Source: Octopus vulgaris (Eukaryota). From it: DNA of 64,000 nt. Under the pieces are notes generated by a model. The model saw nothing but the letters and a program-made list of their open reading frames with translations. It was not told the origin of the DNA and did not search any database. Numbering within the stretch: position 1 is the first letter of the stretch; each line of letters starts with the position of its first letter. Location: contig OX597820.1 of the NCBI GenBank assembly GCA_951406725.2, forward strand, positions 46,190,001 to 46,254,000. Reading direction: 5' to 3'. A program made the translations under genes and the position numbers. Shown piece after piece: positions 8,294 to 30,899 of the stretch.

Positions 8294-8637
8294 ATAAAGA
8301 AGGAAGAGAGAGGAAAGAAAGATCCCAAAGTGGGCAACAAGAGGGAGAAAAAAAGACGACTGGTGTTTACGAAGTACACATGGTGAAAGGCGGAAGTTTA
8401 CGATAACAAGAGCAAAGTAGGTTTTTAAAGCCAAAAGAGTGGAGACAGGGTTGGTAACGCAACAGATGTGTGTGTATGTGTGAGTGTGTGCGTGTGCGTG
8501 TGTGTATGTGTGTGTGAGGCGAGATAAAAAAACAAAAAATATATGTATATGTTAGTGTGTGCGTCTGTGTGTAGGCGTGTGAGGTAGGGCGAACAGTAGT
8601 AGGCAGCAGATAGTGGTCAGTAGTAAGAAAATGAAGG

Positions 8638-9177
8638 AAGCTACACGAAGAAGATAGCCTCTGTGCAGCATATGAGCTACTGGGAAAGACTCAAGAGATT
8701 AAAGCTTTATTCCCTGGATCGTAGGCGAGAAAGATGTGCCATAATATATATCTGGAAGATCATGGAAGGACTTGTCCCAAACTTTGGCATCGAGAGTCAC
8801 ACAAATGCCAGAACCGGGCGCCACTGCGTAGTACCAAGGACTCCAAATTTGCCATCAAGATGTAGGACAAGATATTGTGATAGCCTGGGCTTCAGAGGCC
8901 CACAGCTCTTCAATATCCTCCCAAAGAACCTGCATGGTGTAGATGCGGATGTCTTTAAAGTAGGACTGGACCTCTTCCTGTCAGGTGTCCCGGATGAACC
9001 AACTTCACGGCAGGAGGTGCAGATGAGGGCAGCTGCATCGAACTCTCTCATGCATCAGATGGCGTTTGCTAAAAAGCATCCGTGAGGTAAAATCGTGTAG
9101 CAAACCAAATGGCGGTGCCCCAGCATGGCCACAGCTCATTAGCTGAAACTGGAAAAATCAAAATCAAAAATCAAATC

Positions 9178-9178
<1 letters not shown>
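8638..9178 (+). mobile_element. CR1-group LINE 3' end (ORF2 C-terminus plus 3' UTR)
   Basis: SYWERLKRLKLYSLDRRRER...IWKI...GPQLFNILP...FK..LD resembles the post-RT C-terminus of CR1/L2-group LINEs; tandem AAAATC tail. Confidence 0.8.
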
Positions 9179-9236
<58 letters not shown>

Positions 9237-9239
<3 letters not shown>

Positions 9240-9342
9240 TACAAAATTAGAGAATGGAGAAACATACTTAAATCAATAAAACATCAACCATCCGATGATA
9301 CCCAATCAATACTTTAATACACCACTTGGTGCAAACTGTATC

Positions 9343-9384
<42 letters not shown>

Positions 9385-10215
9385 CATTATTAATATTAAT
9401 AGTAATTTTATTAACTTTTATAACTTTAGAATTTTATGAACTGAACATGGTTTTAATTTTAATTATTATTTTTCATCTCCCTATGTGTTAGTTTTTAAAA
9501 AAAAACTTTTAGCCAAATATGTATAATATCGGTACTTATTAATATTAATATATACACTGATATATATTTTGTTTTATTTTGTTCTGCTTACCTTCCTTTA
9601 TTGTACCAATGAGTATTATATTATATAAGTGTAGCATTATGATGTATAAGTTTTTATATTTTATATTTTTATATTTTTATATTTATATGTATATGATTAT
9701 ATAATATTTTTCACAATTATAACAAATTTAATTTAATTCTCTGAAGAGGCCGTGGGGCATCCTTGTTAATGCCTCATTTATACCTGCCTTTATGGCTTAT
9801 AGGTTAAATGAGGTATGACTGCCCTCACTGCCGAAACAGCTGTCAGTTTTGATTTAATTGCATATTATATTTGAAATTTTTTACTTATATCTCTTTATCT
9901 TTTTACTATTACTGTATATCTCATTTTGTATAATGCCTTTACTCATATGTAATGGTGTATTAAAGTATTGATTGGGTATCATCGGATGGTTGATGTTTTA
10001 TTGATTTAAGTATGTTTCTCCATTCTCTAATTTTGTAGTATTAATTTACGGTAATATTATTACCTTTACCCATATAATACAATAGATGAACTGATTGTTT
10101 GACAATTTTTAACATCTATGTATTAATCTTGTTGGGTACCTATCTGGCAGTATATTGGATATATATTATCCATGGTGGGTTGAATTTTCAACCCCTATCT
10201 CATTTTATAACCTAA
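9237..10215 (+). mobile_element. Non-coding Penelope-like element with inverted terminal segment, embedded in (TA)n
   Basis: Perfect 88-bp inverted repeat 9237-9324 versus 9953-10040; hammerhead at 9739-9846; (TA)n on both flanks. Confidence 0.75.
9739..9846 (+). ncRNA. Type-I hammerhead ribozyme with intact core and extended stem II
   Basis: CTGAAGA 9741-47; stem II GGC...GCC with internal pairings GGGCA/TGCCC and CCTCATTTA/TAAATGAGG; GAAA 9833-36; palindrome ACAGCTGT; GTC cleavage triplet ending at 9844. Confidence 0.8.
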
Positions 10216-10248
10216 ATATATATATATATATATATGTATATGTATATA

Positions 10249-10316
<68 letters not shown>

Positions 10317-10347
10317 CATTCATCCATCCATCCATACATACATATAT

Positions 10348-10393
<46 letters not shown>

Positions 10394-10494
10394 AAATGGG
10401 ACAAGAACGCAAAACATTCAAATAGACGATACAAAAACACGGACGGGTCATTCGAAGCCTTTAATCTTCAGTCAAGAACCGGATCATCCTCGCA

Positions 10495-10547
<53 letters not shown>

Positions 10548-12879: not shown

Positions 12880-13780
12880 GGTACACTGCTGTTTTTAAAA
12901 TCCGGTTGTATATTGTTAGCCTTGTATGTAATAATCTTGCATTTATTAAATAGGTAATTATGTTAATGGAAAACCATTCTTAACATGAGTTTACGATGTT
13001 CTTGTCTTTATGCCTGGGGGAAACTGATATCTTACGAGACAGGGAAGGGTTTTAAAAATAGGTGTACTTACATTTATTAAAGATGATGGATTATACTGCA
13101 TGGTATTTTTGCTGTTCATTCTCCTTTTGGGTCATGTATGTCTATGAAATTTAATAGCTTCTTTGAAACCACTTACTGGATACCAGTACATTATTACATG
13201 AAATCGCTACTTTTTCAATTATGCAACGGTATAAGAGGTTGCCGAAATTCGTTTGCTCAAATTAGTGGATAAATTTCTAAGAATATACGTTTAATGATTC
13301 AAATAGATGTCTATTTATAAAACTGCGTGGCTTGGTTTTTATGTATGATTGGAATTTTTTTGTCATCAAGGTTGAATGCTACATCTAAGAAATTGACTAT
13401 TTTGAGATAACTACTTACTTGTAATCTTTAAGTTCAGGTCGTTAAACAGTTTGTGTATGTATTTCTTGAATTTACCTGCCTGCTAAAGCGTTTCATATTT
13501 TTGACGATTAATTGACCATCGTCTCTATAAATTCCTCGTTTAATGGTGTGGAACTTGCTGTAAAGAAAATCTAGAATATATATTCCAAATAGGTTTGAAA
13601 TGTCTTCGGAATGTCTAGTTCTCATGATTACTGCAAACAGATCTACGTTACGTTTTTCCAAGCTTCTGTTTTTCTTAAATAAGTAGGTCTGTTTTCTGGC
13701 GTGAATTATTATTTTTATGTTGCTATCTCTCTGATAGTAGTACGGAGTTTTGAGATTTCTAGAGCCCTTGGTAATAGATA
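12880..13780 (-). pseudogene. Penelope-like (Naiad-like) RT plus GIY-YIG relic
   Basis: Minus-strand fragments EDISNLFGIYILDFL...GIYRDDG, IVNFLDVAFNLDD, then KNGFPL and IITYKA at the linker and start of GIY-YIG. Many stops and frameshifts. Confidence 0.7.
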
Positions 13781-27961: not shown

Positions 27962-29910
27962 TTCTATGTTTGACTTTTGCTTTATGTCTGTACAAGTTGG
28001 CTCCCAGTCTCACCCAGAGACCTCAAGAGACAACAGGTTGGAAGTTCTGTGCCATATATTTGGGTTTTTTTAATTTTTTTATTTTGGTGTTGTACTAGTG
28101 AATGTCTAATACATAAACAAAAAAAAAGTTTGTTTTAAACCTTGGGATTACATAGAGAGTATTTTGCGTAGGATATGAGCAGTTCCCATGAGCACTATCT
28201 TTTGAATTTCTGCCATTTTGGGGTTTCCTGGTATCTGAGTTAGGTAGCAATCAGTCCCTTTCGCTATCATTCCCAGGGCACCTATGACAACAGGTATTGT
28301 TTTAGTCTTCAGGTTCCACATTTTGCTGATTTCTATTTCAAGATCTTTATATTTGCTCAGTTTTGGTAGGTCTTGACAGATACGTTTATATCGATTGGGA
28401 CAGTCATATCAATGAGGAGGCATGTTTTTTGTCTGAAGTCTTTCAATATATTGTCTGGCCTATTTGCATCTATCTTCCTGTCAGTTTGAATGGTGAAGTT
28501 CCAGAGGAGTGAGATGTGGTCATTTTCAAGCACAGGAGGTGGATTGTGTTCCCACCAGTTTTTTTCATGGGGCAAATCCAGGTTTTTGCAAATTACCCAG
28601 TGAATATATTGTGCAGCTCTATCATGCCTACTGAGGTACTCTGTAGGCGCTAGAAGACTGCATTTGGAGACAACATGGTCAGTGGTTTCATTTTGTTGTC
28701 GGCATACACGACATGTTGAGCTACTGCCGTTCTTTAATATGTTGGCCTGGTAGTTTCTTGTTGGTAGGCATTGATCTTGAGCTGCTATGATAAACCCCTC
28801 TGTTTCAGATTTTAAACCAGAGGCCATTAGCCATTGATGGGTCAGGGCTTTGTCGATATCTGCATTATTCGCTCTCTTTGGGTATTTGCCATAGAGAGGT
28901 TTTTCTTGCCATTTATTATTCAGAATATCTAAGGCCGCAGTTTTGGCACGGGTTTTCATGCGCCTAGCTTTTTCTGTGCTTGTTTCTTGTATATCTATCT
29001 CTAATTCCGAAATTGGTTGTATTCGGAATTCACTTAGATATTCCTTTGCCTGTTTTGTGACTGAGTATGATGCTTTCTTGTTTTCATGTTTTGAGACAAG
29101 TTTTAACATCCAGTCCTCAGAGTTTTTCAGGTAGGTGTCTAGGCCAATTGTAGCAATCTTCATTGTTATTGCCAGTTGCAAAAGACCACGGCCTCCCTCT
29201 TTTCTTGGCAGATAGAGTCGTTCTGTATCTGCCTTAGGGTGGTGCATTCTATGCATTGTCAACAGTTTCCTTATTTTTCTGTCGAGCTGACATATTTCAG
29301 TAATTGACCAGTTAACAATATTGAAACTGTAAGTCACGACTGGTATGGCTAATGCATTGATCGCTTCGATCCTGTTTCTTGCATTCAGCTCTGTCTTGAG
29401 TATTGCTCTCACTCTTCGATAGCATTCTCTCCTGATCCTTTCCTTCATCTCTGAATGCCTTATTCCGTTCCCTTCAATTACCCCTAGGTACTTGTAGCTC
29501 TCCGCTGGGTCTAGTTCTTTTATGACATTCTGTTGGTCAAGGTTAACGTTAGATGTTTCTGTCATTTTTCCTTTGATAAAGGTAGCCTTTGCACATTTAT
29601 CGAGGCCGAATTGCATTCTGATGTCGTCACTGAATTGTTTGACTATCGCTAGTAAGCCCTTGAGCTGTTCGTCATTTTTTGCAAAAAGCTTTAAATCATC
29701 CATGTAAATGAGATGATTTATATTTTTATCAAACATTTTATACCCGTACTGCGCGTCATTGAGCGGCTTTGAGAGAGGTATTAAGGATAAACAAAAGAGG
29801 AGTGGTGACAGTGAGTCATCCTGGAAAATGCCACACGAAATTTTTACATCACCAGCATTTAGGGATTCATTGTCACTGTTCAGAGTTAGTGTGGTTCTCC
29901 ATGATCTCAT
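27962..29910 (-). mobile_element. 5'-truncated R4/Dong-type non-LTR retrotransposon (RT, zinc knuckle, restriction-like endonuclease)
   Basis: GIFQDDSLSP, YMDDLKLF, YKYLG, RLYLPRKEGGRGL, CRVC...ETTDHVVSKC, RHD, RPD...LLIDMTVP. A frameshift near 28360 continues KYKDL...PVVIGALG...ILRKILSM-stop (28148). (TAA)n on both sides. Confidence 0.93.
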
Positions 29911-30136
<226 letters not shown>

Positions 30137-30899
30137 AGGCGGTGAACTGGCAAAATATTTAGCACGCAGGACGAAATGCTTAGCAGTATTTCGCCTGTCG
30201 GAACGTTGTTCATCCTTTTGGGGTCGATAGATTAAGTACCAGTAAACACTGGGGTCGATGTAATCGATGATCCACCTCCCCCAAATTTCAGGCCTTGTGC
30301 CTATAGTAGAAGGGATTATTTTTATTATTATTATTATTATTATTGAGTGAGAGAGCAGTGCATGCCATCAAAATGACATTGGGGTACAAATATACGAAGC
30401 CCAGTATACCCATCGTGAGAACCTGTCTGATAGGGGTACACCAGGCACATACATCACAACCATATGTGCGCGACGTGGTGATCTCATATCACTCTTAACC
30501 ACTACGCCATATGCCCCTTGGCAATTATGGAGTGGGCTTATAAATCTAATATTATCCTATCCTTCCTTAATACCGGTTCCCATATGCTACTCATATCTGC
30601 ACTCGGTCTACTTAGGAGGTTGTTGTGTCCTAGCATATGTGCTGCTTCTTTTAGTTTTCATATTTTCCAGTGGTATTCTCAGTGGTGTTTTAACTTCATC
30701 TCATGTTGTTGTTGTTGTTGTTATTAAGGTGACGAGCTGGCAAAATCGTTAACACGCCGAGCAAAATGCTTCAACGTTATTTCGTCCGTCTTTACATTCT
30801 AAGTTCAAATTCCTACGAGGTTGACATTACCTTTCGTCGTTTCCGGGTCGATAAAGTAAGTACCAGTTGAGCACTAGGAAAATTGTTGACCGTGTGCCT

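Follow-up and report, generated by a model that had tools for sequence, protein, structure and literature searches.

A hammerhead ribozyme motif with an extended stem II lies within about 1 kb of DNA (positions 9237-10215) in the 64,000-nucleotide stretch of the Octopus vulgaris genome analyzed here (contig OX597820.1), which we call the window. The locus raises the questions of what kind of element it belongs to, whether its ribozyme can be expected to cut, and whether so long an arm has a function of its own. A preliminary description, made from the letters of the sequence, had proposed an apparently young noncoding element that carried the window's best candidate for an active ribozyme, with an arm that could bind protein or produce small RNAs. 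We followed these proposals through the genomic copies of the element, the predicted folds, and published accounts of related ribozymes.

Architecture of the window copy

The structural features reported in the preliminary description were found as stated, and their coordinates are collected in Table 1. The inverted repeat is perfect over 88 bp, with 9237-9324 matching 9953-10040 exactly; a further base extends it to 89 nt (9236-9324 against 9953-10041), and this base may belong to the TA flank. The 88-bp repeat had no further match within the 64-kb window. Arrays of (TA)n border the stretch on both sides, and the lack of an ORF was confirmed, the longest stop-free stretch in any frame of 9237-10215 being 57 codons. 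The left arm was also rightly read as a 5' inverted partial pLTR, and inverted partners occur at sibling loci as well. The direct copy is 5' truncated at the fold-back junction, and the inverted arm stops at the family's upstream 3' end, with inverted copies elsewhere stopping at 10031-10043. Because the window copy has no ORF and holds a single hammerhead, which the inverted arm excludes, it is likely a dead end. If the plus strand were transcribed through 9237-10041, the perfect repeat would form a long double-stranded stem enclosing the hammerhead, and such a stem is a possible substrate for RNA editing or source of siRNAs.

Table 1. Features of the element copy and its flanks, in window coordinates
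Feature	Position	Strand	Basis
(TA)n target array, left flank	9181..9236	.	TRF 9181-9238
Second pLTR copy, inverted and 5' truncated; reverse complement of 9953-10040	9237..9324	-	Exact match
Direct copy of the last ~890 nt (3' UTR/pLTR and tail) of the ~5.5-kb Hydra-clade PLE unit	9324..10213	+	Collinear with the 3' end of ORF-bearing L033, L035, L036, and L037
(TAT)n microsatellite within the 3' UTR; length differs among copies	9343..9413	+	
Type I hammerhead motif	9739..9846	+	Core pattern enriched, 3,166 against 4 for control
Extended stem II, 85 nt	9748..9832	+	Fold and named-pair counts in 31 copies of 8 subfamily groups
Palindromic stem III, 8 nt, without loop	9836..9843	+	Cofold and duplex energy
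Inverted repeat, right arm	9953..10041	+	~10041 is the first of two discrete family 3' ends
~172-nt tail, ending at the second discrete 3' end	10042..10213	+	Mapped ends
Twin hairpins shortly before the tail end	10157..10198	+	Conserved in long-stem lineages
(TA)n target array, right flank	10216..10387	.	TRF

The surroundings of the copy are also rich in repeats. Directly left of the (TA)n array, positions 8620-9178 (+) hold a 152-codon open frame with a short (AAATC)n tail and no Pfam match, presumably a LINE 3' end. Between two right-hand (TA)n arrays lies a repeat fragment of ~105 nt (10390-10495), with similar sequence in locus L039; a CTGAAGA motif occurs on its minus strand but lacks a canonical second half, and the fragment is possibly the end of another PLE family. 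At 13497-13718 (-) lies an old RT fragment of Hydra type that shares 36% identity over 74 aa with the family protein described below, and a 624-codon open frame at 28357-30231 (-), with RVT_1 and zf-RVT matches, is a non-LTR retrotransposon fragment.

Identity of the element

Taken by itself, the window copy could pass for an independent noncoding element of ~1 kb, MITE-like or a retrozyme, with fixed ends of its own: it has no ORF, contains an inverted repeat, and sits inside (TA)n. A genome search with 9700-10060 (2.8 Gb in 227 contigs) returned 2,021 candidate copies, and the 40 that were scored gave 41 matches, 40 of them at 98 to 100% identity and one at 95%; the family copy numbers of 2,021 and 1,754 are first-look candidates and not counts of exact hammerhead copies. 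At 30 fetched loci, the 3' end is fixed near 10210-10215, but the 5' end varies, that of the window copy being one among many truncation points, and the inverted partners, which stop near 10041, vary in length, so that the repeat differs in length in every copy. Nor is the sequence a short tandem repeat; it is the 3' end of ORF-bearing units of ~5.5 kb with a 3' UTR of ~2.5 kb. A MITE or retrozyme is ruled out by the variable 5' ends and by the ORF in longer copies, and we regard the probability of an independent element as negligible. What the preliminary description had taken for a ~1-kb noncoding element in its own right is instead a truncated copy of the 3' end of a coding element, 5.5 kb long. 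Its suggestion of PLE origin was borne out, given that the window sequence is collinear with the 3' end of copies bearing an RT and GIY-YIG ORF.

A search of the genome with the start of that ORF returned only 102 candidates, and all 30 fetched ORF-start loci were preceded head to tail by the 3' end of another unit. Tandem pLTRs, inverted 5'-truncated copies, and the tail are all present in the family. Among 20 full-length loci, one has an unbroken ORF of 947 aa (L242), and one has an ORF of 949 aa with a shifted end. PLEs of the Hydra clade, as characterized by Craig et al. (2021, PMC8557442), are C-terminal EN+ elements in which DKG has become DKT, with an RWK motif, a CxCX5C linker, CxxC and CxH in the EN, and no CCHH. 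Sibling copies of the window element encode a single ORF with an RT plus a GIY-YIG-type domain at the C terminus and contain the motifs RWR, DKT, CxCX5C, CxxC, and CxH. The DKT of the clade is present as SDKTSN, and the RWK position reads RWR. The linker is CNCRNKNKC in L035 and CNCRNKDKC in L036 (L033 and L037 read CNF), and the CxxC and CxH of the endonuclease are CSLC and FCIH. Inspection of the sibling ORF revealed no CCHH motif, as for the Hydra clade. The Hydra-type ORF is thus a property of the sibling copies and not of the window copy. The target preference of the clade is also seen, with (TA)n following 93 of the 96 mapped 3' ends (some loci overlap).

Pfam gave no match to the family protein or to two homologues, a PDB search with the family ORF returned nothing, and a homologue search limited to longer proteins found no relatives; a HMMER search with the family protein found 5,515. 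A protein fragment 97% identical to it is labeled Octopus sinensis by its source, and further relatives are labeled O. bimaculoides and Argonauta. By every motif tested, the family is a Hydra-clade PLE, an assignment that relies on motifs and on resemblance to the Hydra alignment as printed, since Pfam has no match. The window copy is a 5'-truncated, folded-back copy of the 3' end of this young and abundant element. Its own youth follows from its nearest copies, which are 99.7% identical over 714 bp and 99.3% identical over 860 bp. The preliminary description had argued for a recent origin from the 88-bp repeat; the age was right, but the repeat formed at insertion and is too short to date much.

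Stop codons are shared among the full-length copies (L240-L259): 9 of the 20 stop after residue 459, 4 after residue 521, and 2 after residue 506, and shared stops were also seen in L036 and L033. The stop after residue 459 sits at a run of C whose length depends on the copy. These shared stops reflect either a shared homopolymer assembly error or a defective master copied in trans. In L242 (C5:142942800-142949800), the 947-aa ORF lies between two hammerhead-bearing pLTRs and carries, between RT thumb and endonuclease, a low-complexity insert rich in Asn; public sources annotate a near-identical fragment of its protein as "GATA zinc finger domain-containing protein 14-like."

Hammerhead core and predicted activity

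The canonical core recognized in the preliminary description (CTGAAGA...GAAA-CAGCTG-TC) is intact at 9741-9844. CTGAAGA (9741-9747) is followed by the stem II domain, GAAA (9833-9836), CAGCTG, T9843, and C9844. Stem I pairs 9739-9740 with 9845-9846, the core comprises 9741-9747 and 9833-9835, and the predicted cut falls after C9844. The conserved elements CUGANGA, GAAA, and NUH are present at the three-way junction, with GUC as the cleavage triplet. The stem I adjoining the core has only 2 bp in the window copy and 3 to 4 bp in older relatives. For 9715-9875, the predicted folding energy is -47.3 kcal/mol (z = -4.26), a value matched by none of 200 shuffles. A focused Rfam search gave no match to the window hammerhead up to E 10, and among the matches listed for the whole window there were only microsatellite-driven, miRNA-type ones below the gathering score. 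Conservation of the core in other genomic copies, on which the preliminary description had staked its reading, is extensive: the pattern of core and stem III with a 70- to 100-nt spacer has 3,166 genomic matches against 4 for the reversed control, which rules out a chance motif.

Folding predictions bear on whether this motif could cut. For the monomer, base-pair probabilities are below 0.01 for stem III, ~0.3 for stem I, and 0.95 to 1.0 for the base of helix II. Two copies can pair through the 8-bp stem III at -12.5 kcal/mol (cofold and duplex energy). Because forcing the active fold on the monomer costs 5.2 kcal/mol over the best fold and stem III is so improbable there, activity is predicted only as a dimer or with a protein. 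The literature describes similar behavior: minimal PLE hammerheads had no activity as monomers and low activity as dimers (PMC4209133), and the Anolis PLE hammerhead cut only when protein was added and was dispensable for insertion in vitro (PMC11167929). Hammerheads are expected in the Hydra clade, and we consider it likely that the window ribozyme is real and is gated by dimer formation or protein. It was the only match from two hammerhead scans of the window. The claim that it is the best candidate for an active ribozyme there needs qualifying, as the monomer is predicted not to adopt the active fold.

The stem II arm

Stem II was described as about 85 nt with several paired segments and as far longer than in minimal PLE hammerheads, and both statements proved accurate. 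Positions 9748-9832 fold by themselves at -40.7 kcal/mol into a stable bulged hairpin of roughly 35 bp in several segments, against 6 to 8 bp for helix II of the minimal hammerheads. That the long arm is unique to the window copy is ruled out, as several subfamilies share it. Genome matches to the core with the same stem III number ~9,300 for stem II lengths of 8 to 131 nt: 2,467 with spacers of 8 to 38 nt, 2,966 with 39 to 69 nt, 3,166 with 70 to 100 nt, and 730 with 101 to 131 nt, classes that may overlap slightly and for which reversed-pattern controls gave 2, 2, 4, and 2 matches. The median folding z of 145 distinct motifs in the fetched loci was -1.5, -0.75, -2.65, and -2.3 in these four classes, respectively, and only 2 of the 20 motifs with 39- to 69-nt spacers were below -2, a weak folding signal beyond the lineage of the window. 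In the window's lineage, the median was -6.1, with all 24 motifs below -2; in older related lineages, it was -2.65, with 27 of 35 below -2. The stem II of older lineages B to E is 44 to 59% identical to that of the window.

Pairing was scored in an alignment of 31 hand-picked copies of related lineages in 8 subfamily groups. The 21 named pairs were paired in 85.8% of cells compared to 33 to 44% for slid controls, figures that are favored by our having named the pairs from single-sequence folds and inflated by the relatedness of the copies. Changes on both sides were seen in 8 of the 21 pairs, 4 of which belong to the 8-pair middle helix (9770-9777 with 9808-9815), which is conserved beside the base helix. 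Three of five shuffle measures beat all 500 shuffles; the number of pairs with two-sided changes was not above chance, with 160 of the 500 shuffles as high, and neither were further pair types (487 of 500). Applied to the 31-sequence alignment, RNAalifold failed to reproduce the structure, probably because the bulge shifts gap placement, which is also why three base-helix pairs (columns 32-34) were left out of the named structure. Sequence conservation reaches 90% or more at several positions of the middle helix, and two positions of the arm do not vary among the 31 copies; this conservation hints at a specific function beyond pairing. The arm tip varies in length and register between lineages. 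We conclude that the arm is probably kept paired by selection.

As to its origin, at the 3' base of stem II several families with 47- to 70-nt spacers have the sequence of the 21-nt family, an agreement suggesting that the long arm grew by insertion, most likely into loop 2. Three older long-arm motifs lie ~2.3 to 2.5 kb downstream of same-strand Hydra endonuclease remnants, and one short-arm motif lies ~0.7 kb downstream of such a remnant; most motifs have no ORF remnant in the DNA fetched around them. The nucleotide at the cleavage position across the 145 motifs was A in 87, C in 30, T in 25, and G in 3, with most families having A rather than C.

We considered that the long stem II might be an RNP module that docks the element's own RT-endonuclease or a host protein, which would fold and gate the ribozyme, or that shields the 3' end of the unit-length RNA; the shielding idea builds on the arm staying with the upstream product after the predicted cut. 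The middle helix would fit such a role, its register being maintained, with 4 of its 8 pairs showing compensatory changes, and its sequence partly kept between lineages about 50% apart, as would the persistence of the arm despite an apparent truncation cost and the dependence of the Anolis hammerhead on added protein (PMC11167929). However, a 21-nt stem II on the same stem III occurs in families of about equal abundance, the arm tip differs in length and register between lineages, and the Anolis study placed the protein-binding region downstream of the cut and not in stem II (PMC11167929). An RNP module is possible, in our estimation, but unlikely. Far less probable still is a small-RNA precursor processed in a Dicer- or Drosha-like manner: a stable bulged hairpin of roughly 35 bp would suit it, but the sequence has drifted to about 50%, the tip is variable between lineages, and Rfam gave no miRNA match at the arm. 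We prefer to regard the 85-nt stem II as a tolerated loop expansion, since stem II lengths form a continuum and short arms on the same stem III occur in families that are about equally numerous; selection would keep it paired so that the core still folds.

Breakpoints around the cut site

If the ribozyme cut frequently in vivo, the 5' ends of genomic copies could record it. Genomic matches that read through 9812-9881 number 457, compared to 68 with a break or shift in that interval. A script was applied to 30 of the broken loci: 3 begin exactly at 9845 and the others between 9817 and 9859 (4 of them small indels). Reading the remaining 38 rows by eye added one more start at 9845. We looked for a sharp peak of 5' ends at precisely this position and found none, with about 4 of 525 matches starting there. 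When copies were taken without regard to this region, 4 of their 16 breaks lay at 9835-9860, compared to 0.7 expected. A tail-anchored sample of 42 copies from 30 loci, small and with fold-back pairs counting twice, had 9 copies that run through and 30 breaks in 9427-10020, on both sides of the cut: 3 in 9871-10020, 17 in 9740-9870, and 10 further upstream. Eight of these 30 breaks were at 9835-9862, compared to 1.4 expected, and represent 6 independent events; the interval was chosen after the result of 4 in 16, and 3 of the 6 events were already in that earlier set. In a separate set of 20 loci, none of 4 partner breaks was at 9835-9862.

The hammerhead appears to be a hot spot of truncation, upstream as well as downstream of the cut. 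One explanation, for which a model was proposed in PMC4209133, is that the hammerhead cuts tandem transcripts efficiently in vivo, that the cut RNA, trimmed by a few bases, sets many 5' ends, and that full units arise from re-ligated circles. It would account for the clustering of 6 independent events near the cut and for the starts exactly at 9845. These exact starts are few, however, and many breaks lie upstream (9744-9843), where they count against in vivo cutting because cut RNA cannot give them; in the Anolis study, moreover, no reads began or ended at the cut (PMC11167929). We consider efficient in vivo cutting improbable. Breaks on either side of the site accord better with an RT that stalls or switches templates on structure than with cleavage alone.

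Two 3' ends, tail, and twin hairpins

The 3' ends of the family fall into two groups. Of 100 mapped ends, which are not all independent since some loci overlap, 63 are at 10205-10225 and 33 at 10030-10046, and (TA)n lies behind 60 of the 63 tail ends and all 33 upstream ends. Where units stand in tandem, the ~172-nt tail leads on into the following unit's 5' UTR (30 of 30 ORF-start loci). The portion of this 5' UTR that was covered showed no intron-like joint, a weak result from partial coverage. Assembled contigs from four runs, which we guess to be RNA, have loose (TA)n ends at both known 3' ends, and some of them bridge the cut site. In Anolis Poseidon, two such ends were reported to be two internal RT start sites, accounting for the tail (PMC11167929), and by analogy we infer that the two 3' ends of the octopus family are two internal RT starts, with a tail longer than that of Poseidon.

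The twin hairpins may contribute to this choice of ends. Under a strict pattern, they were found in 12 of 80 long-stem motifs and in none of 50 shorter ones, although many copies stop before that point. In 13 sequences, 96% of cells were paired and 2 pairs not demanded by the pattern change on both sides; the pattern itself required most other pairs, and this support for pairing is modest. We view the twin hairpins as a candidate signal for the position of RT start.

Proposed mechanism

The explanation that we favor, with moderate confidence, is that of a truncated fold-back Hydra PLE copy in (TA)n whose hammerhead cuts only as a dimer or with a protein and whose stem II is a tolerated expansion kept paired. 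By analogy with other PLEs, the RT-endonuclease would nick the (TA)n target array. The ends seen here and the Anolis findings (PMC11167929) suggest that cDNA could then start at two internal sites, near 10213 and near 10041, giving the tailed direct copy and the tail-less inverted arm. Most insertions would use RNA that is uncut or re-joined at C9844. The stable arm and the palindrome would slow the RT, so that copies often break off or fold back there.

A more ambitious hypothesis, which we think rather unlikely, is that the octopus Hydra elements radiated thousands of hammerheads with a selected stem II arm of 80 to 130 nt that docks the RT-endonuclease and gates cleavage. The arm, the two RT starts, and the twin hairpins would then act as a single control region, and a fossil record of in vivo cutting or RT blocking would be preserved in the breakpoints of thousands of copies. 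If a selected docking arm is real, the role of PLE hammerheads could be tested from genomes and one in vitro system.

Comparison with known systems

The closest known relatives are in the Hydra clade, for example Hydra-1_Obim of Octopus bimaculoides (PMC8557442), a different family from that of the window, which we compared by eye with the printed protein. The likeness covers the single ORF with RT and C-terminal EN, the (TA)n targets, the sense hammerhead in the 3' pLTR, the inverted 5'-truncated copies, and the ACAG/CTGT-type stem III of several Hydra rows. The unit differs in size, being ~5.5 kb with its ~2.5-kb 3' UTR and an Asn-rich ORF insert, compared to the typical (and not diagnostic) size of under 3 kb, and its tail is about 172 nt compared to the usual 30 to 40 nt (PMC8557442). 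Poseidon-Ac of Anolis carolinensis (Frangieh et al. 2024, PMC11167929) shares the two discrete 3' ends that define a tail, the AT-rich targets, and copies that read through the hammerhead, but it belongs to a different clade and its hammerhead overlaps the ORF start. In the window family, counting downstream from the cut, the two 3' ends are reached after 197 and 369 nt and the next ATG after ~520 nt. Animal non-LTR retrozymes (Cervera and de la Pena 2020, PMC7229834) have type I hammerheads, a weak helix III, and a genomic copy number in the thousands in common with this family, but they are short noncoding tandem repeats of 220 to 350 bp, whereas the window copy is a fragment of an autonomous 5.5-kb element.

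The breakpoint clustering reported here bears on the role of the hammerhead in EN+ PLEs. Metazoan PLE hammerheads, such as that of Drosophila virilis Penelope (Cervera and de la Pena 2014, PMC4209133), share the type I core, a palindromic helix III that implies dimer activity, a helix I of as few as 2 bp, and a G-C pair at the base of helix II; the 6 to 8 bp of their helix II contrast with the multisegment arm of ~35 bp. In the 26 Hydra rows of File S2 of PMC8557442, the stem II domain reaches at most about 26 nt by our own count, so that the 85 nt found here are about three times longer. The longest other row, Selaginella PLE-X1_sMoe with about 54 nt, is mostly loop and is marked as deviating (PMC8557442). 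The "long helix II" of PMC13725137 is 6 bp. Our literature search found no paper on such long arms in PLEs, nor on octopus hammerheads beyond PMC8557442; the supplementary figures of PMC4209133 and the Terminon paper may show longer arms. Since the long arm escapes Rfam and no describing paper was found, counts of cephalopod hammerheads are probably too low.

In summary, the element type and the kind of hammerhead are already known, and the length of stem II is what departs from the published descriptions. The natural series of stem II lengths on the same core, from about 21 to 130 nt, provides a panel for studying the function of the arm.
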